Positions 16,882 to 51,992 of a stretch of 64,000 bases of DNA are shown piece by piece (within the stretch, counting starts at the first letter, position 1; every line of letters begins with the position of its first letter). This stretch comes from Botryllus schlosseri (Eukaryota): contig CM119372.1 in assembly GCA_051294905.1 (NCBI GenBank), positions 31,746,001 through 31,810,000 on the forward strand, given 5' to 3'. The notes below the pieces were generated by a model. It ran no database searches and had not been told where the DNA came from. It saw nothing but the letters and a program-made list of their open reading frames with translations. Made by a program: the position numbers and the translations under genes.

Positions 16882-19642
16882 GGGTTAGGTTCGGGTCCGG
16901 GTTGGGGTAAGGAATAGGATGTCTATAAGAGTTAATATCATGATAGCGTTGGGCTTAGCGTTAATGACGTATGCTAAAATGTCGCATGTTCAACAGTCGT
17001 TTATCATTGTGTCCTACGCTCACATGTCGGGTAACCTCATACTGCACCGTCGGTTTCCGAAGATGATAGCGCATTGTTTCACCGCGCTCCGAATGTCGGA
17101 TCGGGGTAGCAAACAACCAGTGAGGCAAATTCATCTGTGGTTCACCTCACTATCGTTTCTCTGCGGTGTCATTGTAAGTAACAATGTCGAGTTTCAAATT
17201 TAGATTTTGAGAGATTCCGTTGCTCAAGCAATATTAATTTTTGACTTTTTGACATCAGGTTGAAAAAGTATTCGATTAATACCAGCAATTACAAATTCTG
17301 AGCACAAGTGATGCTTCGCTGTCATTTCGAACTATATTTTTTAGCAATAAATATACATGATTTTAATGAACATCGGTAGAAAATATCAATATTCGTTGAA
17401 AGTTTTCACGATATTCTCTTCGGCTACTCATCCTGACGACAGATGAGGCCCTGCCTCACTTGTCTCCCCTGACCGAACGTCACTGCATATCAATCACAAC
17501 AGTGATTGCGATGGGAAATGCGTTATTCGTTAACGTCTCTCACTTTTGCGCCCAATTTGAAACTCAAGCTATGCAAGCTATGTCATGTTTGCGTTGGATT
17601 TTATACTTGATTTGAGCATCTCATGGCTAGTGATTTGGGTTCAAGTCAGTTTTGTGATCCATGAATACTTTAATTCATTCAATAAAGAGCCGCATTCATA
17701 TTTCGCATCTACTTTAGCAACCATAATACATTCATATTACGTAAAGTCGCTTTACTTTATCCTAAACCTTTTAAGTCACTTATGGTAGACTATAATTTAC
17801 AAAGATTCTTCGCAAGCGAAAATCGTCTCTGGATATGTAATTTGCTACTTACGTGAAACATCAACTATGTACTCTTTAAATTTAACATCTATTTTCATTC
17901 TCCATCACTTTGGCTTGAACCCGCTCCTTTGTGTTCGATTCGAAGAGAAGACAGAGCAGAAACAGCACACACTAATTAGGTTTTCCACGTGTGCAGCGCA
18001 TGTATTCTGTATGCTTGTGAAGCCTGAGTGACATTACGGACACTTCCTCTCTCATCTCCATTTTGCGCATACTTACGGAGGGAGACAAATTTGACATCAG
18101 AAGAGCTCCAATCTTGATCAAACTTGGCCTATTCAACATGGTGGATATATAGTTTTTAGAATAAAATTTTAGTTTGCTGGTTGTGATCTGATTTGTGGTG
18201 AAATTTCAAAAAATTACTCAAAACTTTGTATCGTATTCGTATCGAAACCAATCTTAGCGGAATTATATGTGCATAATTGTAAATTTCAAGCATTCTAACA
18301 TGTGCTTAGAGAGGCCTCTGGATACTTTATGAAGCATAATTCGGGATTACGAAGCATTTTGGTAATAAACAGGCTTTTGCACGTGTCAACAGTCAGATTG
18401 AAAGAGCCCCCACCCAATTCAAGCCCAAGGAATTATTGTGAGAGACTGACAATTTTAGGGCATAGAAAGTATAGTAGCCTACAGAGGACTCACCCACCAA
18501 TTTTTTAGTTTATAAGTTATAGCAATTTCGAATTTTACCTAACAAAACATAGCCCTCCCCCGTAAGCAATGATGTTGGAATTAGATCAGTGGTTTCCAAC
18601 GGGAGGAATTCTCAATAGGGACGGGAATCTAGATTTGATATTGTCAAAGCTCCTGCAAGTGGGCTGTATGGTAGCCTACACATATGCGTTGAACTGCTAA
18701 ATTACCTTGATAACTGTCAGATAGTTTACAGCAGTGGTTCCCAAACTTTTTCGGTGTGAGGGCCAAATTTAGAATTTCAGAGTACGGTCGGGGCCGCATG
18801 AATACTACGGCTATGAAACTGACCCAAACAGTCATCATGGGTATTTCGGAGTAGTTTTATTGCTCTGGCGAGATTTCAAAACTGTACACTGTTTACCGCT
18901 ACTTATCTGCTGCATTGGGTGTCCATTGAGTGAATCAGCTTTTCTCGTCTAAACCCGCGAAGCGCGCGAGAAATTTCTTTAGCTTCATGACTGAATCGGT
19001 CAATATGATCGGGAATTGCATGTATTGCTATCAATTTTCATCTTGTCTCTGTTCACGTAATCTGATTTACCGGTAGAGCTGAGTGAGGTGTGTTTGTAAA
19101 GGTATAGGCCTCCGCAATAGGAATTAAACACATCCGGGGGTATACCCGTTGGCAGGAACGTAACGGCACTTCGTCAGGACCCCGGGCTCCCATAGGGTGA
19201 TAAACTGACCCCGTATGATGTTGTTCGCATTTGCCACGAAATTAAAGTTGTACTGTTTATTGAGACAGCGCGACGCCCGAATATTTCGATAATTCATGAT
19301 AAAATCGGTGAATAAGATCGGGAATCGCGTGGTTCTCCTCTTTATGCCCACGTAATCCGATTTACCGGTAGAGCTGACGAGTGAGAGGTGTCTTGAAACT
19401 GCAGACCCCGTAAAATTGAACATCTTCGGGCGGGCAGACCCCTAGGTATGACTTCTTCACATGATGTTATTTCGTGACATCCTGATGTCTGCTATATCAA
19501 AAAATGTAGAATTGCCCAAACCTACTAAACTGGAAGATCACACGATTTCAGATTGGTATTTCTTCACTGGCATATAATTTTCTTTCCTGCAGGATGGTAT
19601 TTGTCTTGTGGGGTTCAGATTACCAAGACAAGAGCCATCGGG

Positions 19643-20035
19643 AGTAGTAGTATAGATCGCTCGTGATGTGGCAGGGGCTCTTATGGGCGGGGTGGTGACG
19701 CGCCTGAAAACCGGGGGTGGTGATGCGCCTTTTTAGACCCCCCTTGCGGCGGTGATGCGCCATGTGTTCTTATGGGTGCGGTCGTGATTCGCCTTTTCGG
19801 GTATAGGCTGCGGCGGTGACGCGCCTGAAAACCCGGGGTGGTGACTTGCCTTTTTTGCTATAGGCGGTGGCGGTGATGCGCCATGTATTCTTACGCGATA
19901 TGTGGTGACTCGCCATGTGTTCTTATGGGTGCGGTCGTGATTCGCACTTTCAACCATCTCTCGCGCGGTGTTGAATAGTCACCAACAATAACCGCACAAA
20001 CGGAAACGTGGCTTGCAAGAGGATTAAGCAGTGCG
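19643..20035 (+). repeat. Left terminal inverted repeat (about 393 bp), GC-rich, with about 10 GGTGAYGCGCC-like iterons
   Basis: Reverse complement of 49965-50539; one mismatch seen in the outer ~225 bp. Confidence 0.95.
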
Positions 20036-21670
20036 ACCTATATTCCGAATGACCTGCGCGCTGAATTGTTGCCCATACAGCTGTGTGCTACTATCGATTA
20101 TTACACTAGACCAGTCAGTGTGAAATAGTTTGATCGTAAATTATGATATATGATGTCGTAGTTTAGTCGTGTCAAATGACCGATCGTGTTCTCTTTCCTC
20201 GCTATTGATTGCTACCTGAATAATACTTTCGGCTTATTCGCTGTTTCGCACCTACAGAATAGTCTGCTGTTCACAGTCGCAACAAGAATCACAAGTATAC
20301 ACATTATACATTCATTTATTACTCTGAAATCAAACTCTTCACAAAAGCACGTACAATCGTATCATTCACTTTTTTATCATCGCCAAAATTATCCAAGTAT
20401 TCCTCGGTTGAAAACCCTTGAGCTCTTTTTATCAAGAATGCGATAGCATGATCTCCACACACATCCGAAGTTTTACTCTGTAACTGTTTGCCAGTCACAG
20501 AAAATTCATCTGGCTCCAGGAATTGGAATATCTGAGGTTTTAGTGGTCCGAAACCTAGTGAATCATGAAAATGAGTATCAACGTGTCAATTTGTCAACTT
20601 GAAATGAAACTTACTACACAGCTCAAGTTGATTCGTATCTGAATGTGTTAATTCGGTACAATTCTAATTATTTTGAGAAATCTTTTCGTGATCTTTTGAC
20701 TCGACCAAAACCCGAATATTACTGACGCCGACTTTCAGCCACATCGAATTATTCGCACATTCCGCGCCGCTGTTGTCACACTTATAGAATCAATACCAAC
20801 TATAATTCTACAAGAATCAAGAATCACAAGTATGTACAGTTATTGTCTTTATCAACATGAAATCAAACTCCTAACAAAAACACGCATCTTATCACTAGTC
20901 AACTCTATCATGAAAATCCTCGAGTCCTTATCATCAAAAATGTTATAGCGCGGCGTCGGAATCCATTCGTGGGATGTACTAAAGGTAAATCCAGATAATC
21001 CAAAATGAAATATTTGGACTTTGACATAGTCTGAATTGAAATATATTGACAAACATGACTACCAACTTTGATCCAGTCACATTTCAAGATCATACTTTGA
21101 AACAATCCTTGAAACTTACAACTCTATTCACGACTGAGTTTTCCGTTTATCAGTTTCAGTAAATACTATCGCGATATTTTAATGTGTTACTACACACAAT
21201 AGAATCAATCAATGAAATAACACCTGTTGTAAATATTTCTAACTTGACAACCACTTGTGCATACCGCGATCAAGTTGCGACGCGATGAGTTAAATCGGGA
21301 TATTTCAATCTATTTGTCGAAACCTTGAACAAACTATCAGGTTATTTTTTGTTGTAATCAAGTGAACGGAAATAGTATTACGTCTCAACATTTTAACATC
21401 TGGAACAAGTGCAGTATATGCCCGCTTCACTCGTGTGTATACTTGACGTCATTCATCATGATTCCCCATGATCATTTAATTCAATCGCCCTCTTCTATCA
21501 CTTAAACCTTTTTTCTTCTTATTCTCTCGTTTTTCCGCACGAGCTTAAAAAATGCTGACTCAGCATTTTTTCTAGTTACGAGGTTTCAGTTTTTTCCGTT
21601 TACTCCCATTTTAGGAATTTTGTCCGTTTGCCCTTCCTATAATACTTATTTACACTCTGCCAAAAAAGCT

Positions 21671-22114
21671 TTACATCTTTTGTATGGCTGTGGGTGGTAT
21701 AGGGCCTTCGCACAACACCACTTCTTGTACGTTTTATTGCAGCAGTACGACTCCCTAATTCCTTATATCTGCTGCTTTCATGCAAATTACCACATTTCGC
21801 TTTTTTCTTATCTTCGTTATCGTTTTGGTCAAATGAATGAATCTCCTGTTCATTCGTTCAATGCCTGCGGACATTATCTGTTTTGCATTGTTTTTAGTCG
21901 TCATGTGGTACAATATCTCGTTGCCTTTATATTTACAGTGCGGAGGAGGCAACCCTTTTGTATGTCCATGGGCAGCCGCCAAACCATAGTTCGAGAATAT
22001 TACTCTATCTCACCTTTTCATGACGTTCTTGATTTCTTCAATTTTCATTTGCACCCCCATTTTCTTCTTATGACGCCGCAAATTCCTTTCCAGGGATGAT
22101 ATCTTTCCACCGAG
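21671..22114 (-). pseudogene. Tpt1/KptA-like RNA 2'-phosphotransferase domain with three in-frame stops
   Basis: One frame reads ...LRRHKKKMGVQMKIEEIKNVMKR*DRVIFSNYGLAAAHGHTKG...EILYHMTTKNNAKQIMSAGIERMNRRFIHLT...RNVVICM...RN*GVVLLQ*NVQEVVLCEGPIPPTAI. This follows the KptA motif order RAxxGHS, LYHGT, IxxxGLxxMxRxxVH, V.L...IPP..I. Confidence 0.7.
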
Positions 22115-22334
22115 TCATTACAAAGATCATGGAGACAATGAGACTCTTGAGTTCCGTCTTAACGCTTGGACTGGTCCCTTGTTGTGGTAACTTGGCCAGC
22201 CATTGGCCAATGTGAATCTCGTGATGAACGGGGTTTTGTTGTTGGTGGAGAGAGAGCGAGGTTCTTCGTTGTCAGCAGAGATTTCCTACCTATTCAATCT
22301 AACCTCTGATCTCGGCGTGTGCCCACGCCTACCG

Positions 22335-23087
22335 TCACGCCAACGGACTCAGTCGCCGCCGGGGCCCTGTTTCTGGGGAGACGTGCATCCTAAAATCCCC
22401 AGACTCCTCGTCGGACATGACCGGACGTATATCCGGTTGACCGGCAATAGCTGCTTTGTTTGAACCTTTTGGGACAGTAGTCATTACTGTGGCTGTCGTT
22501 ATGCATCTATGGGCCGAATTATTACAGGTATTCGGACAAGTGCACCCACGAGAGCATGCAGGACCAGTTTTCTCGTGCAGGTCCTCAATTTCGCCAGCGG
22601 GCATTGCACGCTCGACGTCAGCTGTAGCTGTCGCCATGCATCTATGGGCCGAAGTTCTGCAGTTCTTCGGACAAGTGCATCCGCGAGAGCCTTTGGGACC
22701 AGTTTTCTCGTGCAGGTCCTTTTTTACGCCAGCGGGCATTCCACGCTCGACGTCAGCTGTAGTGATCGCCATGCATCTATGGGCCGGATCTTCACAGTTA
22801 TCCGGACAAGTGCATCCGCGACAGTTTACAGGACCAGTTTTCTCGTGCAGGTCCTCAATTACGCCAGCGGGCATTCCACGCTCGACGTCTTCATTAACGG
22901 TGTCAGCAGGCATTCCTGTCCCGACACCAACAGTTTCCCATAGGTTCTGTGTGACATTAGTTGCGATTTTCAACTCGTCGTTCGCACCAGTGGTGATTAC
23001 CATCTCGGTACTTGCGCCAGCGGCAACGGCCAGCGGCGACGGCCAGCGTGCCGGCTCGACGCTTATTCGATTTGCAGCTTCCATCAA
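22335..23087 (-). CDS. 250-aa ORF with three 45-aa Cys/His-rich tandem repeats, in frame with the upstream protease-like segment
   Basis: 135-bp period (CTCGACGTC at 22611, 22746, 22881); each unit has the pattern HEKTGP..xRGCTCP..C...AHRC. Confidence 0.65.
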   Translation of the reverse strand: MMEAANRISVEPARWPSPLAVAAGASTEMVITTGANDELKIATNVTQNLWETVGVGTGMPADTVNEDVERGMPAGVIEDLHEKTGPVNCRGCTCPDNCEDPAHRCMAITTADVERGMPAGVKKDLHEKTGPKGSRGCTCPKNCRTSAHRCMATATADVERAMPAGEIEDLHEKTGPACSRGCTCPNTCNNSAHRCITTATVMTTVPKGSNKAAIAGQPDIRPVMSDEESGDFRMHVSPETGPRRRLSPLA

Positions 23088-23668
23088 CCCATCATCGGTT
23101 ACAGTGTCGCGAGGACTGCTTCCGACTTTGGGTACGTCCCGTTGATATTACGAGATCCCATCATGTAGCGTTACTCAAGACAACTCTTCATTTGCGTTAG
23201 ACGATGTTCTCAACCCAGTCCCTATGCTAGGTAAGTGCTGTACTTGATCAATCCATTTGAAACCAACGGTTGCAAATAGAACCGGTCGTCCGTCAAAGAC
23301 AATTATTACCAAGGAGCTAACGTGGGGGAGTCACCCATACCACATGTCTATGGGTATGGGTTGCCGCTCCTCCAAGCGTTGTGTGTGTTTGGTTTTGACG
23401 ACGTTCTTCAAATTGAGGACACATCCCGTGTCGGCCCAGATTTTCCTACCTGTTGTTGTATCAACTAAATACAAAAGTTGGCCGCCGAACCATTCCGTAA
23501 AATCTGGCTACAAAGGGTCATCTGGTGTATCAAGAAATGTAAATAGGGGCAGGGAATCATTATGTACAGTTTTTGTGTGTTGGGGTAATAAATTATCTGG
23601 GAGCTGATTTACCGGATCAATCAGCTCCCGCGAGCGATTTTCGAGAGTCGAATACTTTGCTTCAGTTC
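23088..23668 (-). pseudogene. Retroviral-type aspartic protease remnant, in the -1 frame relative to the Gag-like ORF
   Basis: Reads RKIWADTGCVLNL (DTG codons at 23424-23432)...IPIDMWYG*...VIIVFDGRPVLFATV...LPSIGTGL. Four in-frame stops at 23508, 23331, 23175 and 23148. Confidence 0.55.
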
Positions 23669-25450
23669 ATCATCCGTCCAATATGAAGTATCATATCGAA
23701 GTGGATGATCAGGGTATTGAGGTTCTGTCCAAGCCACTTGACTATTACCTCGGGATGAGTGTGCAAGCGGTAAAGATGGCTTTGTGTCACGCATATCCTT
23801 TGTTTCCAGGTTCTTAGGGCGCGTCTCTTGTTCATCCAGAAACTCGGAGTTCCAAACAAGTTGTAGCTCCTCCGCAACGTCCCGCCAGGTTTTCTCTTCT
23901 TCCCAGCCTCGCAACATCAATCTAAGCGCTTCTGGTAGTCGCTGCCGTAGATTTCGGAAAAGACGTAATCCATCCGGATTTTTCTTAATTTTACTATCCA
24001 TGTCTATTTCCAGTTGCTTCAAGGCGCTATTCAGCAGGGGTAGCGGCTCATCCTCCCAGCGATAATTTCTACGGAAATCCCCAATAATCTTTTCATCATT
24101 TACCAAACCCTGGGGATTGGATAAGGAAAGAGATTGCATCACCGATTCCCATTCTGCTTCCCCAGAATTGGTATTAAAAAAATTTCCAAGTTGGGTAGCA
24201 TGCTTGTGTCTGCCAGCCGCTCGCAATTTCTTCTGCATCGCATTAGCCAAAATAACATCCACATCCGTATTTCCGGGACCGTGGCGTATTCGTCGCATTG
24301 AATTCTCCATCCATTTTAGCAGTGGCATGTCTCCAGGGTCCATCATAAGCTGAAGCATTTCTTTTTCTGACTGGATTTTAGCCGACACATTGAGTAATGG
24401 GGCCGAAACACCAGAATACTCGTGTGGCTGTTGCTGCCGTTGTCGCCTAGTCCTTCCCCAATACTCTTTTGGAGTGGAGGTAGCGCGAGGTGTATTAGGA
24501 GAACGAGAGCTATCGGAAAGTTCCTCATCGAGAGATTCTTCCGTGGAATCCTCAGAGCTTGCACCGCCCCGTAGGGACCTTATATTATCTCTTATTTCTT
24601 GGGAAATCTGTTTCAGTCTAGCATGGAAATCGATTTCAGAACTTTCTGCATCAGATTGTTCCTCGCCTGGACTATGAAAGGTCACCCGTCGGGAAGCGCC
24701 GTCCGCATTTATACGGGATTCTGTCTCCGAATTTCGGCGTTCTTGCCAACCCTGATATCCCCTATATTTACTCGAGGAACTTTTTGCAGGTTCCGTCCTT
24801 GTTCCCCCCGTTGCTGGGTTTCCATCTTTTTGTTTGGCGCGTGCACCACTGCCCACATGGAAACATGGAGTCGTCCCTATTCGAGAGTCTGGCAATGAGG
24901 TCGAATCAGAACGTGGTAGCTTAGGATAGACGGCCGTTACAGTATGACAATCCAGACCCTTGCGAACCGTCATCGTTGGTCCTTGTTGTACGTTACTAGA
25001 CTGCTGCTCAACGAGAGGAACGTAAGCCGGAGGGTCATATTCTGGTGCAGTTGGAGCTACTGTCAAAACGGGAGATTGGATGCTATCTCGTGTAGCCTGT
25101 GCATGCGACTTTCCGAGCTCAAATTCTGACGTAAGGATGTCATTCAGCACGTCGGTGGAGACCTTCCCGCTAACTTTTGTTGTGGCATCGCAAACAGCTT
25201 TGAGGTCCGCTTGAGCTTTTCGAACCTCTTTCTTTGCCTTTTCTAACCCTTTCATGGTCTCCGGTAGAGCTGTCTTTACTTCTTTTAATAGCTCCGTTTG
25301 TTCAGCCACATCTTTAGCAAGTTGTCTTTCTTGTCGCCGTACATCTTCATGGCGTTTTTGTGTTGCTTTAAGCAAGGTAATGCCCTGTTTAAGTTCATTT
25401 GTCGCTTCTGACGACCTTTTCCTTTTAAATGCTTTCAATATTCTTCGCAT
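23621..25450 (-). CDS. 609-aa Gag-like protein: N-terminal coiled coil, PTAP/PPxY late motifs, Ser-rich linker, helical C-terminal domain
   Basis: Long intact ORF; PTAPEYDPPAY at 25022-25054; position directly upstream of a DTG protease-like frame. No CCHC knuckle. The Gag identity is an inference. Confidence 0.6.
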   Translation of the reverse strand: MRRILKAFKRKRSSEATNELKQGITLLKATQKRHEDVRRQERQLAKDVAEQTELLKEVKTALPETMKGLEKAKKEVRKAQADLKAVCDATTKVSGKVSTDVLNDILTSEFELGKSHAQATRDSIQSPVLTVAPTAPEYDPPAYVPLVEQQSSNVQQGPTMTVRKGLDCHTVTAVYPKLPRSDSTSLPDSRIGTTPCFHVGSGARAKQKDGNPATGGTRTEPAKSSSSKYRGYQGWQERRNSETESRINADGASRRVTFHSPGEEQSDAESSEIDFHARLKQISQEIRDNIRSLRGGASSEDSTEESLDEELSDSSRSPNTPRATSTPKEYWGRTRRQRQQQPHEYSGVSAPLLNVSAKIQSEKEMLQLMMDPGDMPLLKWMENSMRRIRHGPGNTDVDVILANAMQKKLRAAGRHKHATQLGNFFNTNSGEAEWESVMQSLSLSNPQGLVNDEKIIGDFRRNYRWEDEPLPLLNSALKQLEIDMDSKIKKNPDGLRLFRNLRQRLPEALRLMLRGWEEEKTWRDVAEELQLVWNSEFLDEQETRPKNLETKDMRDTKPSLPLAHSSRGNSQVAWTEPQYPDHPLRYDTSYWTDDELKQSIRLSKIARGS

Positions 25451-25458
25451 AGTACTCT

Positions 25459-25827
25459 CTATTGACTAGAGGAAGTACTGTTGACAAATATTAGATCAGG
25501 CAAGGATGCGTTGAAAAAGACTGTAGGTCCTGGCGGCGTATTCGTGGCTTTGACGTAAGCAGTGGGTTCGCTGCTATTTGATCCCAAAAATACGTTCAAC
25601 AGATTAGAAAACGCTCCAGGCGATACGTGCAGATAAATTGCTGCCAATATTATCAGGAGAGATACAGACGAGGAAAGCAAGGATACAACAAGTACAAGTT
25701 TTACGATGGTCGTCTTTGAAAGCATCGATCGGTCAACGTCTGAACACCGGAAGTATGCCCCGTACTGGCCACCAATTTTGTTTTTATAGTGCAGCTCCAC
25801 AACGATTGTTATGCGAGTAGTCCACAC
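25459..25827 (-). CDS. Putative small single-pass membrane protein
   Basis: Hydrophobic run IVKLVLVVSLLSSSVSLLIILAAIYL followed by NSS, NAS and NST sequons; stops 8 nt before the Gag-like ATG. Confidence 0.4.
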   Translation of the reverse strand: MWTTRITIVVELHYKNKIGGQYGAYFRCSDVDRSMLSKTTIVKLVLVVSLLSSSVSLLIILAAIYLHVSPGAFSNLLNVFLGSNSSEPTAYVKATNTPPGPTVFFNASLPDLIFVNSTSSSQ

Positions 25828-25996
25828 TTGTTCGGGATACTTCGTAGGACAAAGTTGACACTATTTGCTCTCTTGTGTAGTACTGACGACGTTCGTAGAT
25901 CTGTAGATGTTGATTTGAGATTTTTCAAAGTCGTAAATGTTGATTGAAGTATTCCGTAGTTGTAATATTGTCTTGTTTCCAAACAGCCAATGACCA

Positions 25997-26302
25997 TTAG
26001 GTCCAAAGTTCTAAGCTAGCCCTCGATACAAGTAATCTGAAACCCTTAATACAACCAAATACTCCAATCATTATCAACCAATTATGGACACAAATATAGG
26101 GCGCTTCTATAAATATCGTCCCGTACGGGTCTATCAGAATACGAGTAAAAGCTAGGCCTATAAATATGTCATGCATGATTGATAACTTTTCAATACTCCA
26201 AGGTTGGTTTACACATATAAATGTGAAGGCCTTTCCTGCCTCGACACACAAGCATATGCAATATACAAGAAACATGCCAATAGATGTTACAAAAAAATAC
26301 AC
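25997..26302 (-). CDS. Putative small multi-pass membrane protein
   Basis: Three hydrophobic segments; overlaps the next co-oriented ORF (25809-26006). Confidence 0.3.
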   Translation of the reverse strand: MYFFVTSIGMFLVYCICLCVEAGKAFTFICVNQPWSIEKLSIMHDIFIGLAFTRILIDPYGTIFIEAPYICVHNWLIMIGVFGCIKGFRLLVSRASLELWT

Positions 26303-27010
26303 TCAGAGTTCAAGTTGACCAACTTGCAGACTCGTGTATTATAAGAGTTCTCCAGTCTTCCAGCTGCAGGTATCGAACCGAAATCAGTCCAGAAAGCGAC
26401 CCCTTGTTGAGTACTTTACGTCATAAAGTACTTTCGTGTCGATTCGGGGATCAGGCATTCCAACAGTAGGCGGCGTTTGTTGAGGGTTCGTCGTAGGCAG
26501 AGATTCCGAATGCAATATCTCTATACTCTTGGCTCTTTTCATCTTTAGTTCATCGAATTCATGGAGCTATTCCAGCACATTTCATTTGGCTTTTCCATTA
26601 CTGTATACTTGTAACTTCGGCTAGCAGTCAATCCCATTTTATTGCACTGCTTTATTTCTGTATACTTTGCAACTGTGGCAAGCAGCCGATCCAATCATTA
26701 TAAGGTCAAGAGCTTCCAGGGGTACATGCGAACATCACCCTTCAATGCCGAAAGACTTTAGTACCTCCCGCAATCAATCGTCAATATACTGTTTTGTGGA
26801 TATAGTATGATACTGGATGCTTCGTTTTGGGCTGTGTTTCGAGAGTGCTGGACTGCTGGTGGCTTTACATTGGTAGAGCCAGAAATTAGCCAACACTAGA
26901 GGACACATTCACGATGTCTGCATTGGTAGTCATTGGATATTACAACTGAATGTACAATTCATGTGGGCACCATACATGGCATGGATATGCAATATGCACA
27001 CACACATATA

Positions 27011-27217
27011 TTACATATACTTCAGCTCACTGCAAAAGTTCGCATACATGGAAAAATGATGGCGCCATTTTCGGTAAAGCAACCTGATGGTAAAGCTAAC
27101 TACTAACATGCATACGACAATTCCAGATAAGCACAAAGTGCTATCAACACAGCGGCCAAATGTACAAAGCATATTCGACTGTTCATTCATTAACCCATGC
27201 GCAAATTCGAAATACAA
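27011..27217 (-). CDS. Putative small membrane protein
   Basis: LCLSGIVVCMLVVSFTI followed by a basic RLLYRKWR stop-transfer-like segment. Confidence 0.25.
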   Translation of the reverse strand: MYFEFAHGLMNEQSNMLCTFGRCVDSTLCLSGIVVCMLVVSFTIRLLYRKWRHHFSMYANFCSELKYM

Positions 27218-27947
27218 AATGGCGGCATTTTTGTTAACTCAACACGATAGTGAGTATCGGCAATTATAGAGTTCGAACACGCTCTGCAAATTTAGCGTTG
27301 ACGCAATCGATCTCATGAATCGAAAGCGTGAACCCTTGGACTCAATTTTCGACACATCAATTTCGCAAAAAAGATGTGTGTACTTTTCTATTGTATATAA
27401 GAATTTTATTTTAATTTTATTGAGAGTGATTTAGGGTGATTGTATCAGTTGCTTATGCAACGGCAATTCATCTTACTATTGACTCATATGGGCAGTCAGG
27501 TGACTACAAAAGTCACCGCTAATCTTTTCAGTTACTACGGCTTTATTCATAATCTAACATTATGATGCCTTACCTTAACAATTTGAAGGGACAATGTAGG
27601 CATTCTCTGAAATATAAGATTTGCAGTGCCTAGGTCAGAGCTTAAATCTACGACCTTTTACGGTGTTTAGCTGCAATCCATGAAGTGCGGATTTATGCGT
27701 ATGAAAACCGGTGACACTGCGATTCGAGTATGCAAAGGCACGAACTAACACTGGCGTTTCCACGCTACGACGTGAAATTCATCAGAAAATAATCTCAGGA
27801 ATACATGGTAGCACTAAATGGACACATTTGTGTAACACAATAGTCACCGAATGACCTCGGTGCTCCGCGAGCACTTGGATACATTGCGATTATCGCAATA
27901 CAGACTCCTCGGATGCATTGCCGTCCAGTTTAAAATTGTATTAAACT

Positions 27948-33120: not shown

Positions 33121-33191
33121 CTCTTTCCACGCCGAGCTAAATTTGAAGACAATCTCTAGCGAACATATGGGGATACGCGGCGTCGAAAGAG
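33121..33191. mobile_element. 71-bp TTAA-flanked mini-MITE (piggyBac-like)
   Basis: TIR CTCTTTCCACGCCG / CGGCGTCGAAAGAG (1 mismatch); TTAA at 33117-33120 and 33192-33195. Confidence 0.7.
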
Positions 33192-39836: not shown

Positions 39837-42129
39837 TAGGGTTACCATATTTCTGTGATACAAATTCCGGGCACCCATTAGCGCCCACCAGCGGATTTAA
39901 AAATGAGTTATGACGTCACACTAGCAAAGCTTTGCTGATAGACCTGGGGGGGCATTACAAAACAATGCGGTAAATCAGAATCTCCGCCAGCGGTAACGAG
40001 CTCTCTCGAATGCGATTACCGCATAATGTAAAAATTGGTATTTCAAAACATTTTGCGGCCAGCTCACGCAAGAGCGCTTTGAACTCACGTAAACTCTCGT
40101 AATTCCAGACGCAACGCAACGTTTCGCAATGAACGCGCTAATTTGTGATTTCTTCGCCTAGTCGGCAATCTCAGTAAAAGATGACATCAAATGAGGACTT
40201 ATAATGCTGTGTGGTCACTGGTCAGCAACCATTTGTAATTTAGCTGCGATAATCTTTCACAAACAGGGAAATAGAAGTACCCTAATTATTTGTGGGATTT
40301 GATCCGAAGATAACAAAATTACAGGCGTACGGTACATTATAGTTTGTCTGCTTCAGGCCGTTGTGTCAAGTATCACGCGTACCGTACATTGAGTTTTAAT
40401 TTCGTGTGAGGATAAAGCTGGAGCAATACATGTATAACATTCTGGAAACATGGCCCTGATCGTAGTTCGCAACGACTTTACAAGCCTACCGAATCGGACT
40501 GAATGTAACCATTCGGCAGAGAATTACTTACTGACAAGTCGACCACATGATATGCTGGCCAAAGTTAAAAAGTGGATATCCAATAAATCTATTTTGACAA
40601 TAGATTCCTAACCTACCGAGGTTGGTAATCTATAATTGAACATTATAAAAGCACGCTTCCGACATAAAACTCAATTCCACGTTGTATTCATACGCGCCTT
40701 AAACGGCGTGAGGTAGCTTACTCAGTCTCCGCACGTAGTGGTCCGTATGTGAATTCAATTGATAAGCGCTATATATCGCCACTGCTTTATTTGGCTCGAT
40801 TTTACCAACAGTTAGGCTTACGAAATACGACCCAATTAGGTAACTTACAGGACATGCCCTTTTAGATCGATTATTGCCTCACTTCTTTACTATATTGAAG
40901 TAGAATATTAAGATTTTGCAGTTGAAAATGCTGCAATTTCCAGTGAGGATTCAACTCCGCCAGCTTGAAGCTAGGCGGTAAGTTAACGCGCGAAATCTAC
41001 GCTAATTTCAGTTTTGTAATACCGAACTTCGCGGATAGTGACGTTCGTGACGCAGATCGTTCACGTTTTCTCTCGATTTCTACGTTTTGCGGTAAGCCAA
41101 TGTCATCGGTAAAAATGCTCTCGAAGATATCGATATTGAGGGTTTTGTAATCGCGATTGTCCGTTTCTCTCGAATTGTGACGGTAAATGTTGATTCCGAA
41201 GTGCGGTAGTTGTTTTGTGATGCCGCCCCAGAGCTGGTCACGATCCGGTTCAGGAGTATGTGGCTGTGTGTTGTGTAACCGGATCTGGTTTTTATATGCA
41301 TCATGTCGTTAAATTTTTTGAATGAATTCTGTCAATAATATTGGTTGTTCGCTTGTTCCATATATTACTATAGATAGTTACTATACTCTCCGCCCACATC
41401 AGTTAGCGGCAGAGCTGGTGGAGGATGATGATGAAAATACAGGGAGCATAATTGTACATCGTCAAGTCCGATAAGATCGTTTATCAGTCTTATACCGGTG
41501 CGCACCACGGAGCTTTATAAAAAAACCCACATCCAGTGGTTTCCAACCTTTTATGGTCGCAACTCCATCTCCAATTTGAAAATGTTGCGTGGCCCAGATC
41601 AAAGTTTGACGAGCTGATTACTAAAAGAAGTCAGCACCTTTGCCCGGACTTACTCACGGGCTATATTGGAAGTTGATTATGTTTAACATATTCGCGAACC
41701 CCAGAATAAAGGCAAACGACCCCCACGTTTGGAACCACCATCTTTGAATAAAGCATTTAAACGGCATTAACGATCTCTAGGAATATGCCGTTTTCCTATA
41801 ATTGCGACTACAATTAGGCTTATTCCAGTAAATGAAGGTTGTTTTTATTTATATTTTATTGCAGTTTTTGCGAGGGTGTGGTAGTCTTCATACTAAAATC
41901 AACAAATGTAATGGTAAATCGCGCGCAGCGCGAAGAAAAATATCATGCATCTGCATAAATATTCCCATAAATAATGTTTTTATGTTGATTTACGAAAAAT
42001 TATGAGCCCACGTCGTCAAATCTTCAAAATTCCAGACATTTGGCTTATTTTAGAAATTCCTCCCGGACGCTAGTTTGAACAGTGAAATTCCGGACATGTC
42101 CGGGAAATTCCGGACGTATGGCAACCCTA
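39837..42129. mobile_element. Nested hAT element (TAGGG type)
   Basis: TIR TAGGGTTACCATA / TATGGCAACCCTA; TSD TGCTACAG at 39829-39836 and 42130-42137. Confidence 0.9.
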
Positions 42130-43409
42130 TGCTACAGAGTATTTGTGTCAAGGAGGGCCGCGACAATACTCCCAATTAACACAATTGTGGAAGGCTTCGC
42201 TAACAAGACACACTAACACAAACACACGCGATTACACACCCTTTCCGTAGCGAACTACGTCCGGTAGCACGCAACACATAGATCTGGCCGCGTTACGTAA
42301 CGGTTAACGCAAGACTTATTCATTTATGTTTTGCAGGCCACCAGGCACCAATCGCTATCCAATCACTGTGAAAATCAGCATGCCTAAATTTACTAGTGGC
42401 GTGAATGTTTTTTTTTAAATTTATGTATGAATTTGGTCAATAATATTGAAACTTCCGTAATCCATATGTAGCATAAACGAAAGCAGATTTCCTGCAGGAT
42501 CTGATGGAATGGTATCTTCGGAAATTTCGGACCCTAATGTGCCGCCCAGTTAAGACTATTAATGAAGTTTCGGATGGGTTCACATTACATTGTTGAGGCA
42601 TGTTGTTATTTCATGAACTCCGGTAAAGATTGTCGCTAGGCTGCTCGAAAGATTCCCAATTCGTAGTTCTTGACTATGGGTGATGTGACCTTCTCGTCGG
42701 GTCGCATTTGTAGCGCTGGGCTCAGATTTCAAGGGAGAGAGAGAGAGAGAGAGTCTTTATTTTCATCCAACCAAAATACATAACAAACGGCAGTGATGGT
42801 GGTACAGAAAATATGCATGCACAGTATTCGGTATGAGATAGGAATAAGCGATAAGACCGTGGAGGTCATCTAGTTTGATCACACCAGCATGAAACAGGTA
42901 CACTTGACTCTGAACAGTCTGGCTGTAAAAATGTTTAGTTAAAAAAGGAAAATAGAATAAAAATTAAACGATGGTAGCAAATGATCAATGAAGCAATGTC
43001 TGGGCGAGGTAGGGCAACAGTGTTAGTAGTATAACGACAGGAGGTGATCAAGTAGGTCTTTTTTGAATCTATTATAAGTAGGGCGATTTTTTTTTTGACA
43101 TGTCAAAAAAAGTCAAAATTAAGTCAAAATTGTAGCGTTAGGTCAAAATTTGTCAAAATTGTTTACAAAGTCAAACATTTTTTGACCTCTGAATTTCGTT
43201 TGTATCGTAGATTTTGCGCTGTCGGTGAACTTATCACTTGATATTTTACAGCTTGTAGCCTACTTTATCGGCCTAATGTTGTAAACGACCCATCGTCTGC
43301 TCATTGTGAATCATAAACGATCAAATGAAACAAATAGTGACATGGTTTTATGGTCAACGTACCGCAATATCCTAACTGAAGCAAAACTGCTTGGACATTG
43401 CATGATTCT

Positions 43410-43607
43410 TATATCAAGAAGCGCAAGCTGAAAAATTGTGATATAGACAACATTGTCAGAATGAAGCAACACGGTGTGTCACCAGCAGTGTGCACACAAC
43501 TTCAGTGTTGTCAGCCAACAACCGCTGCTGTTTAACGTTCTTTCTCCATTCTTGGCAAGCTACTTAGTAAGGACAAACACTTTCTACCCGAAAATGTAGG
43601 AAAGTAA
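43410..43607 (+). pseudogene. hAT transposase C-terminal dimerisation-domain remnant
   Basis: QPTTAAV*RSFSILGKLLSKDKHFLPEN matches the PxTSxxxERSFS motif with the Glu mutated to a stop. Confidence 0.7.
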
Positions 43608-43755
43608 GCTATCTTTCGTTCGTTGTACTGCAACAAATTTTAATTATTTCCACCAGAATACGTAATGGAACTACTGGAATTCTTCATAGGGCCAGATTTC
43701 GTTAAAATACTAGTTTTTTCGTGGGCTTCTTGGAGGTACAGAACTTCAATATACA

Positions 43756-44138
43756 ATTGAATAGTATATTCATATTGAAATAAACCCGAATATTTTCGGC
43801 TGACACTCGTCAGGGGTAATCGTCAGCAACTAGTAGAGAATTGGAAAGAACATGGTATCTGAACAATCGTATCACAAAATATGACGTCACCAGCATGAAA
43901 GAGAAAGCGTTCAATGTACTATTTTTAGGTGGTACACGAACTCCTTTTGTTGACAGAGTTTTGGTTGGTGTATTTTGATAAAAGTCGACTCCAAGTCACA
44001 CAAATGACGTCATATTTTGTGATACGATTGATGATATACCATGTTCTTTCCAATTCTCTACTAGTTGCTGACGATTACCCCTGACGAGTGTCAGCCGAAA
44101 ATATTCCGGTTCATTTCAATATGAATATACTATTCAAT
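43756..44138. mobile_element. Penelope-like inverted pseudo-LTR pair with two hammerhead motifs
   Basis: Inverted ends ATTGAATAGTATATTCATATTGAAAT; minus strand encodes HLCDLESTFIKIHQPKLCQQKEFVYHLKI; hammerhead cores at 43784-43817 (-) and 44077-44110 (+). Confidence 0.75.
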
Positions 44139-45568
44139 AGTTTTTTTCATGTAAAAATTTGCTAGTTTTTGTGCCCAAAACGTTTTTTCGGGCCAATCTA
44201 CTTTGTAAGGACAGACAGTTCCAACCAGAAATGAAGATAAGTAGTACAATTTTGACATTATGTGCGAAAACACCTAATTTGCATACGTAAGGTCAAAATT
44301 TGGTCAAATTTCAGTTTTTTTTAGGTCAAAAAAAGTCAAAATTTAGATTTTTTAGGTCAAAATCTTCCGTTTTTTAGGTCAAAAAAATCGCCCTAATTAT
44401 AAGGCAATTCACGGATATGTGGTTGTAATGCATTCCATATGATAGGTCCCGAGTAGTCCCAAGGGCAGGAATATTCGGAGCCGCGCAGTCATATCAATAT
44501 CGACAGTTTCGGTAAATATGTGTCGGTCATTTTGGATTCTAAGTGTTATCACCGTCGATCTTTCTCGAAGCACACTTTTCGGATTCGCAGATTTCGCGAA
44601 ACGTGTATATGTCGAGATGTGTCCTAGAGCGTGGATATGTATGTACCTGATGGTCCCGCACTAGTCTACTGCACAACTCTAGGCTGCTGCATCCATACGG
44701 CCTCAAGCGAGGCTAATAAAATACCGTCCTTTCATAATTGCGAATACAGATTTACTCAATTCAGTAAAAGTAACTCAAGCGTATTTAATGCGTTATTTAA
44801 TTCATTTTCAGTTTTCCAGTGACACTAAATCGCGCGAAGCGCACAATGAAAAATTTCTGGTTAAATGAATTTGCCCCAAAATAGTCTATTCATTGCCCAA
44901 TAAACAAAATTACTGAAGAATTGGAGGCATGGCCCCTTCTGCCCTCCGGCTAACAAATATAGCACAATAAATTATAGTTCGTCACTTTCCGTTTTGGAAA
45001 CATTGCGCCAGATTTAGCTCGGGTAGATGTTCACTAAAAAAAAGCAAGTTCACTTGCGATCTCTTTGACTTGAATCGATGACGTTGGACTGTGTTGTCAC
45101 ATGAAATTTCAAATAGCATTCGAACATACTTCCAGCAGGGGAAACCAGCCAAAAGGAACATATACGCTCAGAAATAACTAGTTGACTATTTAACAGTTCG
45201 AAAATGAAGCATTTGGTAAATCCGTTACAATTCTAAAGCAAAATTCCCCCTGAAAATTACAAAATTCTCCCAAAGGGGAGAATTTTCCCCGGTTGGAAAC
45301 CAGCGAGCTAGTGGAGAATGAACAAATTGACTTCTGTTGTTTGTTGTTTTTTCATTTCTTCTTGTGTCTGGCGGTGAAAAACAATTCCATGCATCCCATC
45401 AACCCTGGTTGATAATGCCTAGTTTAATAGAATTTGTTATTACCCCTCGCATAGGTCAAATACGTGACTATGACGTCATAAATGGTAGTTGTAGGTGGTA
45501 TGCGAGCACTGCATAAATACTCGAAATGGTACGTGGGTGGAAAAAGGTTGGGAAACACTGGTCTAGAT

Positions 45569-48240
45569 CAATGCAAAAGAGATGATTCGTTTTTTGAAAC
45601 CGTAGCGAAGACCACATGTAATTCTATGCGATAGACTTCTATCTCCTTACAGTCAGTCGTGTCGTGTCCATTTTAATACGGGCCCACATGTATGACATGC
45701 ACACACTAACACCGTAAACAGAAGTCGATGATTTTGACTATTAAAAATATTTCTTGACTACAGCGGAATGTCTATGTTGTAGAAAGTAAATACTATTATG
45801 GTGTTGTGTGTTTAATGAAAGCGATTGGTTACAAGTATGTTTTGGGAAATTAAATTTATTTTTCTGTATGTGACAGTTTGCGAGGAAATGAAAATAGATT
45901 CGTGGTTTCAATTTAATTGTGACTGTGTTGTTTTAATGTACGTTTCAACAGGTAGACTTGACACTGAACAACAATTCGACCCACAAAACATATTCGTTGT
46001 ATGATTTGTTACTGGTGTGTAAAGGGTTAGGAATATTTTGAATGATAATATCTACTAGCTGTTTTGTTGTGAGAGCGATCATGTGATGACTCAGCACTTT
46101 TCGTTAGCAAAGTAGATTGATCTATGTGAAAGATGTAAGGACCGTGACTAGAAAACATATGTACTTTGTTGTTGGGGAACTGCTATGGCATTGACATAAC
46201 CCTCTGGAAGTGAGTATGCTTTTCTTTCACGAAAGTTTACGTGGTTCCGTTGTAATAAATTTGTGTTAACTAAACTCGGATGGATACCGCAATTGTGCTG
46301 GACTTACACATGGTATTCGCATACTGTGCACATATACAAACTTTTGTGTAAACAACTCTGATGTTTCTGTTAGTACTAGTTCTGTGTTGATTATTAAGAT
46401 GCATGAACACCCGTTCAGACAATAAAGTTCTTGTGATATCGAAACAGTTTGAAAGCACCACCAATCATTGTACAGGTTTGTAGCATGGGAATATTTTCAT
46501 GTGTCGTGAATATCTTTCGTATACACTTAGTATGAAATGAGATGTGTGGAACAATAATTAGTGTCGTACAAAGTGTTGTGTTTGATTGCCTACTTTTTAT
46601 CAATGTCTTTGTGATGTTAAAAGACGGCTGAGTTTTCATTTACATTAAGCGGAGAAACTCAAGTAATAAATTTTACTCGTTTGAAAATATCGATCAATGG
46701 AGTAACAGTATCAATATGAGAGGTATATTATTTTTTTCGCGATATGCAACCAATCTTCTAAGCATAACTTGTCAAAAATTTATCGTGTCGTAGAAACACC
46801 GGTTGTTACGAATTCGAAAGAAATGTACTTCGATTATCACGATGATGGAAATTAAGATCAATGCAGTATTTCGGAGATGGATGTGTATCGTTTGGTATGT
46901 TCCCCAATCACTAAATGTCGGTTAGTTAAACGATACATTTACAAGTTTACTGAAATCTTGATTTACAAATAACAGCTTGATGATGTAAAGCTCAACCACG
47001 CAAATGTGTTCATTGCAAAGTATTTGACACAAACAAAATATCGAATGGAGGCAATCACATTGGTTTCATTTCGAGTGATTGAAAATTGTTTTCTGTTGGT
47101 CAGGTAGGACACATTTGACAAACATCGTACACATTGTTTCTTCGTGATGGTAACGACTTTCAGCGGTTTGGTTTCATGTCGGGAATTATTATTTGAGGGC
47201 TCGAGAATGATTTCAATCAATACTAGAAATGAACAACAATGCAAAATACGTTTAGCAAATAACAGTGTGGCAAGTACTTTTTCGATATTACGAGTGTTGG
47301 GCACTAGACACTTTTAGTTGAATTGGATGCATCTAACAAACATATCACGATTTACTTTTGCAATAATCAAAGTATGTGAAATGGTGCGAACGGATTAGGT
47401 ATTAATCAAGCGGCGGTATGTCAATTCACCTAGTGTGATATCTTGACACCGGATAATGTGTGAAAGTGTTTCAATTCTCACTGCTGATTACGATGATGAA
47501 GTATTGCACCGGTTATTGTTTAACAAACGAAATTGTCGTTTCATCTTTAGTCTTGGTTACTGGAAATATTTTCTGATATCCGCGATACGCAGAGTGATTT
47601 TTACCAAGGTGGACTAATTTTCCTATCAAGAACATTTCTGACATACATAGTTTTACAGCTTAATATGTTAATAACATTGGTACTGAAAAGTTTGTTGCTG
47701 TCATAACATTTACCACAACGCCGGGTCTAATTAACGCAAATAATTTAATAATAAAGTAATGATCAACTATTACAAATCTCATATGTCAAATCAATGTGTC
47801 AATCTTATGTTCACAGCATGATAACTTTGAATATAACACCATTGTTCGATTGTAAGAAATGAATCTCAACTACGTTGGTCGGACTTTCAAATCTCGTATA
47901 CTCAAACATACTATGTTAATCTCAAGTCGCCGACACTGAGAAGTAATTACTTTTGTCTTACAAAATATACCGAGTAGTAATTAGTTTGTCTTGCAGAATA
48001 TACCGCGTAGTAATTCCTCTATCTTACAGAATAGTAACGACTTTTCAAGCTGAATAAAAAAAGATGTGTAGGGATATGAATACAACCAAGCTTGTTATGG
48101 ATTTTAGGTTTTAGTGATTGTATGGATTCGTGTATGTTTGGCTGTTTTTCATACTGATACTGTTTGAGTTGGTTGGGTAAGTTACAAACGGATTTACTTG
48201 ACAATGTTTTCGTGGTTGACTCTTTGAGTATGGTAAGATG
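45569..48240 (-). repeat. Main part of the right palindrome arm
   Basis: Reverse complement of about 35275-37916, visibly high identity with scattered substitutions and indels. Confidence 0.95.
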
Positions 48241-49964
48241 GTGAGATGTCGAGACGTAATACTATTTCCGTACACTCAATTACAACAAAACATAACCTGC
48301 ATTCAAATAAGCCGTAAGCTACAAGTGGATTTAAAACTTGATGCTGTTTTGTGGTTGACTCAAGTCAGTAGTCATGTTGGTGTTGATTTCGGGAATGATC
48401 ATGACGAGTTGGTCGGGTAAATTAGGTAATGTGGTTGTAACTATAACCGTAAAGAGATGCTGACATCCCAATATCTTTTACGCTGTCGTATATGGATTCA
48501 ATTGTGATAATTTAATTCTCAGTTATTGTTCTGACACTCAAATCTCGTATACTCAAAATATAATATGCCCAAGTCAAATCGTATATGCACCGATTAGTAA
48601 ATACTCTGTCTTACAGAATAGTATAACGACCTTTACAGTTGGATAAAAATTATCGGTCCTATGAATACAACCAGATGAATTAATTCAAGTTTGCGAGTTG
48701 TACTGATATAGCCAAGTAAGTGAAAACTAGATTTTAAACACTTGTTAATGTTGTGAATAATTCTTTTGAGTATGGTAAGATGTTAAAATGTCTCTTTGAC
48801 AAACGGAAAGCTGGATCGGGAATAGAGTTGTAATGTTACATTACTTGTTTCAAATCAATGTGTGTATAATATCGAAACGGGACTGTGGGGAAGTTGCTAG
48901 TCATGTTTGTCAATCCTATTTCAATGCACACTACGCCAAAGTCAAAATAATCGGTTTCGGATTAGGATTTTACAATTATTTCACACCTTTTTGAATAAGC
49001 GTCAACTTCACAGAGGATTAGGGTTGGGTCAGAAATAAGTGAAAATTTGTCGGTATTCGAATCACCGGCTACGCCGGTTCTATGGTAAACTAATTACTAA
49101 AGTAACACCATGCGACTGATTACTAGATTTAGCAAACTATTTCGCACTGACTGGATTAGTGTAATAATCGATACGATAGTCCAGTATACTGTAGCACGAA
49201 ACAGCTGCACAGGAAAAAATTCAGCGCGCAGGTCATTCGAAATATAGGGCGCGCGCGTAATCCTCACAACAAGCCGTGTTCGCAAAACGGATGTAGTTAG
49301 AGGGTCGCACATATCAAAACGCAAGCGCAAACATCTGTTTTTCAAAATCACACAATGTACTGCGGTTTAGTGAATTTCCCGTCGGAAATAAGTGACAATT
49401 TGTTGCTATTCAAGTTACCCACACTGATGGTTCTGATAGTCAGTATTTATTAAATCTTACCAGTGAAATCTAGTTCTGTGACAAACTGATTACTAAAATT
49501 TCACCGCGTGAGCGATCGGTATGGCTATGACACCAAGTCGTGAAAGATGGGTATGTCCGAGACATTATCTTGTCAGTGATCGCGGGGTTTTGCAAACTAT
49601 TTCACACCTTTTTGAATAAGCGTTAACTTCACAAAGGATTACGGCTAGAACAGAAATAAGTGACAATTTGTTGGTATTCAAGTCTCGCCGGTGATGTATC
49701 TGTTATTCGGCACTTATTACACTTATCATGAAATTAGAGTGAGAACATAAAGCATCAAGTTGTTGTTTTCGAATTTTGATGTCGAGGTGATAAATTTACG
49801 CATTCAATTACAATTCAACTTCGGTTGTGTGTTGAGTGATAGATCGATATGCCTGAAGTGGTATCTTGTGAGCGATCGTAGGATTTTACAAATATTTCAC
49901 ATCTTTTTGAAGTGTTAGTTTGCGAACGCGACTATTGTTGATATTCGAATCGCCGTCTGTCGCA

Positions 49965-50539
49965 CGCACTGCTTAATCCTCTTGCAAGCCACGTTTCCGT
50001 TTGTGCGGTTATTGTTGGTGACTATTCAACACCACGCGAGAGATGGTTGAAAGTGCGAATCACGACCGCACCCATAAGAACACATGGCGCATCACCGCAG
50101 ATCCCGTAAGAATACACGACAGGCGAATCACCGCCACCGCCTATAGCAAAAAAGGCGAATCACGACCACGAGTTTTCAATACGAGTCACCGCCACAGCCT
50201 ATACCTGAAAGTACGAATCACGACCACGAGTTTTCAATACGAGTCACCGCCGCAGCCTGTACCCGAAAAGGTAACCATGCCACCGCAGCCATAAGACACA
50301 ATGGCACCATGCCACCGCCTATAGCAAAAAAGGCGAGTCACCACCCCGGGTTTTCAGGCGCGTCACCGCCGCAGCCTATACCCGAAAAGGCGAATCACGA
50401 CCGCACCCATAAGAACACATGGCGCATCACCGCCGCAAGGGGGGTCTAAAAAGGCGCATCACCACCCCCGGTTTTCAGGCGCGTCACCACCCCGCCCATA
50501 AGAGCCCCTGCCACATCACGAGCGATCTATACTACTACT
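49965..50539 (-). repeat. Right terminal inverted repeat (about 575 bp) with extra iteron units
   Basis: Matches the left TIR, plus about 180 bp of additional repeat units near 50120-50310. Confidence 0.95.
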
Positions 50540-51992
50540 ATCGGGGCCAGTCATTTAGGCGCCTATATGGACAAATAAATCTATATGTATTTTGTATATA
50601 TAACGAAGCTTTTGGTATTTCGAAGTTTTTGGTCAGCATAAAAGCAGTCCTTTACGGCCAAGGCTTTCTCGCAGGCGATCGTTCACACTTCTTGGAGTCA
50701 CATGTTACATGGCCTAAAACTTTATATGTCTTGGTGCGTTGTGGTGCGGTCATGGCCAACGCTGATATGTCCATTTCTATAAATCTTGCGTGTTTTTTCT
50801 TGGGGAGAGTACCCAATAATCAAGATATGCGGCGAATTGAAATCGCGCCCAGCGCGAAAATTTTTTGAAGAAGTTGCATAAATTTCCAAAAAATATTCTA
50901 TAATTTATGCCAATTCACGAAATAATTTTGGGCCCCCTTCGAGCTCGGCCCCCTAAATTGGGGGGTTCGGGGTGCGGCATTTACGGCCCTGAATATAGGA
51001 CTACCAATTATGCTGCTTTTAGCCGACTAAGCAGTATGCATCTCGGCGTATTCAACCGTGAATCACGTGATGCACATCAATAGTTATCATAGGGTTACCA
51101 TACGTCCTCTTTTAAGATGATTTGTCCTCTTTTTTGATTGTTTTTAAAGTGTCTTCGGAGGTCGCCCAAATGTTTTATTTTTTGAGATTTTGTCTTCTTT
51201 TTTGAGGATTTTGGTTACATATAGGGCCAAATTCGACTGATATACATTAAGTCAGCACTGTAGGAACACTACGGTGGCTATTTCGTAGCTGGACCGGGAA
51301 GTTTTTTTTTCAATGTTAAGGAAAAACTGTATTTTCCGGGAGTTGAGCCTCTTTTTCTTTTTTAGTCAAGCGACCACGAGGGAGAGATTTTCCTCCGGTT
51401 TTGTAAGTTATCAATACCTATTTATATCTATAGCTACTGCTCGTTCAACTGGAAAATTGGGGCACATTGCATTGAAACAGCAGTGGCACAATGTTAGCAG
51501 TATATACTAACAACTTTCCTGCAATTCTATAATTAAAAACCACAGAGGTCAAGTCAAGCAAGAGTATTTTATAAATATATATTTTATTTTTGTCAATAAT
51601 CGATTTCCTAATATATTTTGGGGGCCGCAAGAAGGCTCTCTGGGGGCCGCACTTGGGAATCACTGGTTTACAGAATATGAAACCTCAGCAGTGGTAAAAC
51701 AAATTGATATGGTGCAATACACAATACACCCACACATCAGCGCGATACAATGCAAGCCTGCACCAAGTGTGGACGGGTATTATAAAATAAATAAGTATAT
51801 CCATCCGATTTAAATCATACAAGAAGATCGATCAGAGGAGAACCGAGTAGTCTATAAAACAGAAATACACTGCTATGAATAGATCACTTCGAGTATACAT
51901 CAACGAAGCACTAATCACTTCGTTTGCGGTAAATATATTTTTGACATACCGACGGGGCTCAGTAAAACCAGACTGCGCGAAATCGTCTAATA

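Follow-up and report, generated by a model that had tools for sequence, protein, structure and literature searches.

Descriptions of Mavericks, or Polintons, usually present them as virus-like transposons that are autonomous, and their non-autonomous relatives are seldom considered. The autonomous elements were reportedly treated by Kapitonov and Jurka in 2006 and by Pritham in 2007. They have also been considered, as polintoviruses, by Krupovic 2014 (PMC4028283), and are defined by a protein-primed family-B polymerase together with an rve integrase (PMC5499653). For their structure, Barreat and Katzourakis 2021 (PMC8097293) give the end motifs (AGT)2//(ACT)2 or (AG)3//(CT)3, perfect 6-bp duplications, an element length of 12.7-24.6 kb and inverted repeats of 46-1447 bp. 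The locus considered here lies in a 64-kb window, that is, the whole stretch of DNA analysed, taken from contig CM119372.1 of the tunicate Botryllus schlosseri (assembly GCA_051294905.1, positions 31,746,001 to 31,810,000), in which positions 19643-50539, comprising an element backbone and its inserts, very probably represent a single old insertion of a Maverick/Polinton satellite that is foldback-shaped and non-autonomous. All positions below are those of the window, unless another copy is named.

Copy-back or snap-back defective DNA-virus genomes, for instance those of incomplete adenovirus particles, which have long inverted repeats, resemble these satellites: each is a palindrome of genome size, in which only those ends of a protein-primed virus are left that would serve replication and packaging. 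The satellites differ in that they sit, with target duplications, in the chromosome of an animal. With the Drosophila FB elements and Galileo (P superfamily; PMC3573991), the element shares the very long, internally repetitive inverted arms, the short middle and the mostly gene-less content, but the ends and the duplication length differ, and its partners are Mavericks instead of MULE-like or P-like transposases. In comparison with the autonomous Maverick/Polinton elements, the likeness lies in the (AGT)n//(ACT)n tips, the 6-bp duplication, the inverted repeats of a few hundred base pairs, the 90-91% end identity to the coding Mavericks of this genome and a relic of the protease gene, whereas the window element is devoid of polymerase, integrase, ATPase and capsid genes and is built of two inverted arms, with its length inflated by nested transposons. 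Within the portion of the literature open to full-text searches, no description of whole-element palindromic Maverick satellites was found. The window copy links such satellites to the coding Mavericks of the same genome by the shared ends, a motif array and the protease-gene leftover, and this direct sequence link, the clearest so far, is new, as is the fall of identity from the tips inward.

Element ends, target site and host repeat

The element starts with AGTAGTAGTATAG at 19643 and ends with CTATACTACTACT at 50539, the left tip being (AGT)3 ATAG and the right one (ACT)3, and it is flanked on both sides by the exact 6-bp target-site duplication ATCGGG (Table 1). The 5'-AG...CT-3' tips with the (AGT)n//(ACT)n motif, the exact duplication and the terminal inverted repeats of 393 and 575 bp (from tens to about 1400 bp being expected) all agree with the Maverick/Polinton structure; a first-pass annotation, made from the letters of the window, had reported (AGT)3 termini, repeats of about 390 and 575 bp and this very duplication, and was accurate on each of these points. 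The outer inverted repeat, formed by 19643-19871 and 50311-50539, agrees in 228 of 229 bases, with its sole mismatch at 19847. In the second block 19884-20035 and 49965-50116 (152 nt) pair at 96%, and the arms that follow are 90.7% identical; the identity between the ends of the window copy drops from the tips inward. The two repeats are of unequal length because the right end contains about 180 additional bases of 58/121-bp subrepeats. In the 64-kb window there are 13 occurrences of GGTGAYKCGCC, against 0.05 expected, all of them in the two element ends, and the motif may be regarded as a candidate binding site for Maverick end recognition, providing a concrete candidate for the study of this step.

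The B. schlosseri genome searched amounted to 495 Mb. The outer 229 bp gave at least 81 matches (40 scored of 2317 candidates), mostly arranged as inverted pairs 13.5-20 kb apart; seven copies were examined as full sequence, the end junctions at 30 ends, and the target duplication in 14 end-pairs (13 including the window copy, and a 16.9-kb element on C14). AGTAGT begins 29 of the 30 fetched family ends, with a varying number of AGT units at the tips, and the duplications are of exactly 6 bp in 13 of the 14 end-pairs, the remaining one agreeing at 5 of 6 bases. Both the (AGT)n tips and the duplication of 6 bp characterise the family as a whole, and the Polinton/Maverick ends proposed by the first-pass annotation hold beyond the window copy. 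The GGTGAYKCGCC array, placed within about the first 250 bp, lies at the same offsets in most of the ends fetched with the window repeat, including those of two gene-carrying copies, L037 and the C14 element.

The sequence that received the insertion is itself a repeat. Flank queries of 250 bp on the left and 250 bp on the right had thousands of candidates each, with 40 scored per search, and about 20 loci were common to both match lists, with the two flank halves contiguous and ATCGGG present once; in such uninterrupted host paralogs as C16:8211379-8211872 and C14:15545826-15546319 the two flank matches overlap at the single ATCGGG. The host repeat, whose ends were placed by longer queries, comprises 18732-19642 and 50546-51665, about 2.03 kb in all. 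It is read as a non-autonomous hAT-type element because of its inverted termini, CAGTGGTTCCCAA and CAGTGATTCCCAA, and its own exact 8-bp duplication GTTTACAG; an 8-bp duplication with short CAG-type inverted termini is seen both here (18732...51665) and in a nested block at 39461-45560. Thus, of the earlier suggestion of a hAT MITE (a miniature inverted-repeat transposable element) with rejoining halves, the hAT type and the rejoining stand, and the repeat is rather long for a MITE. Another satellite copy, C16a, also resides inside the same approximately 2-kb hAT-type family, at another position, which is found uninterrupted at window 19185-19250; that two sampled satellites (the window copy and C16a) lie in one hAT-type family may be chance, given the abundance of this family. 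A diverged relative of the host element, of 71-76% identity, occupies window 8409-8865.

Foldback backbone and coding Mavericks of the same genome

A feature overlooked by the first-pass annotation is that the backbone, of about 10.9 kb, consists of two long inverted arms. The left arm is composed of 19643-21401 and 35275-38822, the turn is near 38822, and the right arm is composed of 38825-39460 and 45561-50539; 35278-37925 pairs with 45560-48240 at 90.7%, and the arms align piecewise to those of a palindromic family. Five of the seven fully fetched copies are near-perfect palindromes of 13.6-15 kb, with arms of 6.3-6.9 kb around a middle of 0.65-1 kb; within one copy the arms are at least 99% identical in nearly every 500-bp bin, whereas different copies are 75-86% alike, except for one pair at 97.8%. 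The window copy shares with these palindromic satellites the end family, the arm sequences, the duplication length and the foldback plan, and differs in the 90.7% arm identity, the protease relic, the 20 kb of inserts and the absence of the central loop (about 0.9 kb) with its two conserved open reading frames (ORFs), which are present in five other copies. It is a decayed member of the palindromic family, with the length raised to 30.9 kb by the 13.9- and 6.1-kb inserts, and is now probably immobile, because the central loop and its ORFs are lost, the arms have come down to 90.7% and the length is twice the usual one. The segment 39466-45559 was also considered as the foldback centre and rejected, since the alignment with the copy C9a places it as an insert of the right arm, with the true turn near 38822. 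A clock-like calculation from the arm identities was dropped because the lower identities came from tandem-repeat stretches.

The window element is considered non-autonomous, rather than an autonomous member, because the family-B polymerase and rve integrase genes were not found: tblastn with the genome's own polymerase and integrase ORFs gave no match inside 19643-50539. From the virion module (capsid, packaging ATPase and adenain-like protease), only an 86-residue relic of a cysteine protease was recovered, by tblastn with the ORFs of the genome's own coding Maverick; it has lost the part bearing the conserved GSHW histidine and was seen in none of the six other sampled non-coding copies. 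The first-pass statement that none of the Polinton genes is recognisable is nearly right: of 298 frames running from stop to stop, with at least 45 residues each, Pfam assigned no Maverick family to any of the 290 scanned (all but the last 8, at the right end), and the statement fails for the protease relic. In C9a (L043/L044), both arms, at 2018-2359 and 13513-13854, contain a relic of another gene, a 200-residue plus-strand ORF located near the other end of L037, of which residues 87-200 are kept at 92-93% identity. Since this relic comes from another ORF than that of the window copy, different satellites appear to keep different leftovers of the Maverick subterminal genes.

The first-pass annotation suggested a search of the genome with the outer repeat for other copies and an autonomous partner; coding copies with the same end sequence are present. 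The 9.3-kb copy L037 is 90.3% identical to window 19643-20579 (958 bp) and has, all on the same strand, a series of ORFs that includes the integrase, ATPase and protease; its integrase ORF has rve and chromo domains (E 1.3e-15), and the nearest Atlas clusters of its 432-residue ORF carry the double-jelly-roll-like PF21738. Its terminal ORF of about 147 residues, used with four relatives as a profile, matched the cysteine protease S273R of African swine fever virus (6lj9_B, E 4.6e-5). Searches against the PDB by phmmer with three L037 ORFs and the protease ORF gave nothing useful, the viral cysteine protease match being obtained only from the protease alignment profile, and the AlphaFold model of the protease (mean predicted local distance difference test score, pLDDT, 51.5) was too poor for a fold search. 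L037 has no room for a polymerase. A copy on contig 5 (L047+L045) is 97% identical to it over 7 kb, beyond which follows an open frame spanning 746 residues or more; the relatives of this polymerase frame, P0002, are 37-41% identical over the whole length and carry PF03175. The ends of the 16.9-kb element C14:21243659-21260583 agree with the first 644 bp of the window element at 91% and with each other at 99.1%; its duplication is CAAGTT, and its span holds a capsid-like ORF match and a polymerase match with a 1234-residue open frame.

Coding Maverick copies are plentiful in this genome. Full-length matches to the capsid-like ORF, at 97-100% identity, make up 80 of the 97 scored, 77 of them without a stop, and all 746 residues of the polymerase are covered by 46 of the 60 scored matches, at 95-100% identity, 40 of these being without a stop. 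The earlier proposal of a non-autonomous Maverick/Polinton derivative moved in trans is supported by the ends held in common with gene-carrying copies and by the family-wide 6-bp duplication. L037 and the contig 5 copy are 97% identical inside and only 76-79% alike at the ends, and the ends of L037 resemble those of the satellites, which suggests an exchange of ends between Mavericks and satellites. Three adjacent ORFs of L037 at 3094-5059 (minus strand; 301, 225 and 141 residues) have a repeated C-terminal motif (LLRV..., PYYFP...) and have the appearance of tandem paralogs of a single virion-module protein; two of the three were scanned against the PDB, with no family found for either.

The window copy entered the hAT-type element, duplicating the 6 bp ATCGGG, and two other transposons, of 13.9 and 6.1 kb, were inserted into its arms later. 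As to the mechanism, we infer that a Maverick rve-type integrase, supplied in trans by the coding copies, would have recognised the (AGT)n tips and the GGTGAYKCGCC array, made a staggered 6-bp cut at the target and inserted the satellite, which would itself carry nothing aiding its own movement.

Nested insertions and the weighing of explanations

The 13.9-kb insert is bounded by the 8-bp duplication TAACATCT at 21394-21401 and 35275-35282, the arm is uninterrupted at this site in C2a and C25a, and full copies of the block are found elsewhere in the genome. Among 39 other genomic matches to a 600-bp query centred on the 35274/35275 boundary, none crosses it: 14 insert copies stop and 25 arm copies start there. 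The insert was also considered as a Helitron or a long terminal repeat element and rejected in both cases, because it has no long terminal repeats and has an 8-bp duplication with imperfect inverted termini. The 6.1-kb insert, filled with high-copy short repeats, has the 8-bp duplication GTCTAGAT at 39453-39460 and 45561-45568 and breaks an arm sequence that is continuous in C9a. Because of their own 8-bp duplications, the uninterrupted arm in other copies and, for the larger block, the absence of any match across the junction tested, both internal blocks, which make up 20 kb or two thirds of the element, are later nested transposon insertions and not cargo.

The opposite possibility, that the 13.9- and 6.1-kb blocks were captured and moved as cargo by a transport vehicle, as supposed by the first-pass annotation, is very improbable. 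It is true that both blocks stand between Maverick ends, and a future mobilisation would carry them, and that the larger one contains a long ORF and a Tpt1/KptA-like fragment; however, each block has its own termini and its own 8-bp duplication, the arm is uninterrupted at the insert sites in C2a, C25a and C9a, and the 13.9-kb block exists in full elsewhere, with 0 of 39 other matches crossing the block/arm junction, by which the vehicle reading is already largely refuted and the idea that such elements ferry large cargo is corrected in favour of ordinary nested transposons. It is still less probable that the element is a foldback transposon of another superfamily, FB/MULE-like or P/Galileo-like, being Maverick-like at the tips only. 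Duplications are of 9 bp in FB and 7 bp in Galileo, as against 6 bp in all 14 pairs here (5 of 6 in one of them), and the partners are Mavericks; the first 644-958 bp are 90-91% identical to elements with polymerase, integrase, ATPase, protease and capsid-like ORF matches, and the window copy itself contains a relic of the protease gene, all of which outweighs the long, internally repetitive inverted arms without genes that recall FB and Galileo (for Galileo, PMC3573991). Although mis-assembly readily affects palindromes and nested repeats, an assembly artefact is extremely unlikely, because exact duplications are present at three nested levels (6, 8 and 8 bp) in addition to the 8 bp of the host, and each interrupted sequence rejoins precisely in paralogs, which mis-joins would not produce.

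Another account, which we hold to be possible but rather unlikely, concerns the same element and a different way of spreading, by replication rather than by integrase cut-and-paste alone. According to it, the satellites would be defective genomes of the copy-back kind, belonging to an endogenous Maverick virus that is live; its protein-primed polymerase would copy them, starting from the AGT-repeat tips, and they might also be packaged, with a near-genome size kept for this, the terminal few hundred bases re-synchronised in each round and the protease relic marking a recombination between virus and satellite. Such a course would suit the arms that are at least 99% identical within a copy while the copies differ by 14-25% (except the pair at 97.8%), the distance of 13.5-15.2 kb in 9 of the 14 other end-pairs among the outer-229-bp matches, not far from the coding element's 16.9 kb, the varying number of AGT units at the tip and the fall of end identity from the tips inward in the window copy and C25a. 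However, chromosomal gene conversion between inverted repeats, or common descent, could give the same pattern, the clustering of sizes may reflect inheritance alone, and recombination between lineages also fits the arm identity, the length clustering and the tip-inward fall.

The interpretation as an old insertion of a non-autonomous Maverick/Polinton satellite, which we consider very probable, has several points weighing against it. The action of the integrase on these ends is deduced from the shared ends and the duplication length, and the structure relies on the assembly: the public short-read contigs of three DNA runs on 18400-22000 are pieces of 60-220 nt, with no listed record bridging the junction, and are uninformative on junctions and polymorphism. 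The 14 RNA reads placed, mostly on the host repeat, are likewise uninformative on expression. The arms of the window copy are far more diverged (90.7%) than those of the five palindromic copies and include one non-homologous stretch of 1.3-1.7 kb; set against the identity of at least 99% in the palindromic copies, these features indicate that the window copy may have arisen by recombination and not by decay alone. Among the long ORFs and the 290 of 298 frames of the window, Pfam recognised no Maverick family, the only family found being the Tpt1/KptA fragment. In the coding partners, the P-loop ATPase ORF of L037 has a weak Pox_A32 likeness that is below the Pfam cut-off, and the capsid identity of the 432-residue ORF is a lead taken from the Atlas. 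The polymerase of this genome is missed by Pfam; PF03175 gave no match genome-wide, but its control was also silent in every genome, so that this blank carries no information, and PF04665 over the whole genome gave one weak match only, outside the window.

Coordinates and accompanying features

Table 1. Positions of the satellite, its nested insertions and the host repeat in the 64-kb window
Feature	Position	Strand	Remark
Host hAT-type element, left part, terminus CAGTGGTTCCCAA	18732..19642	.	Duplication GTTTACAG at 18724-18731
Left target-site duplication ATCGGG	19637..19642	.	Single in uninterrupted paralogs
Left terminal inverted repeat, 393 bp	19643..20035	+	Six GGTGAYKCGCC at 19694-19914
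Maverick cysteine-protease relic	20322..20579	-	Last 86 of 188 ORF residues, 95% identical to L037:1009-1575:-
Left arm, outer segment	20561..21401	.	Homologous to palindromic arms, e.g. C2a 1482-2331 at 87%
Nested 13.9-kb repeated element, unclassified type	21402..35274	.	Imperfect termini GGAACAAGTGCAG.../...CACAAGTACC
Left arm, inner segment	35275..38822	.	Ends in repeat arrays of about 41 bp
Foldback turning point, approximate	38823..38825	.	Central loop missing
Right arm, innermost segment	38825..39460	.	94.5% identical to C9a 9573-10214
Nested 6.1-kb hAT-type composite	39461..45560	.	Termini CAGTGGTTCCCAACC / CAGTGTTTCCCAACC
Right arm	45561..49964	.	Collinear with arms of palindromic copies
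Right terminal inverted repeat, 575 bp, ends CTATACTACTACT	49965..50539	-	Seven GGTGAYKCGCC at 50086-50488
Right target-site duplication ATCGGG	50540..50545	.	Identical to the left copy
Host hAT-type element, right part, terminus CAGTGATTCCCAA on minus strand	50546..51665	.	Duplication GTTTACAG at 51666-51673

Inside the 13.9-kb insert, a 614-residue ORF (23621-25465, minus strand), which begins in a coiled-coil-like manner and matches no Pfam family, is located in a GC-richer stretch (46-49%), with three 135-bp tandem repeats beside it at 22487-22891. An 84-residue frame of the same insert (21758-22009, minus strand) corresponds to the RNA 2'-phosphotransferase Tpt1/KptA (PF01885, E 5.7e-9, above the cut-off) and may be either a fragment captured from a host gene or one exon of a gene belonging to the 13.9-kb element. 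Outside the satellite, the segment 54954-55337 (minus strand) resembles the Maverick integrase core at 25% identity (tblastn E 6e-7) and probably belongs to the rve integrase of another mobile element.

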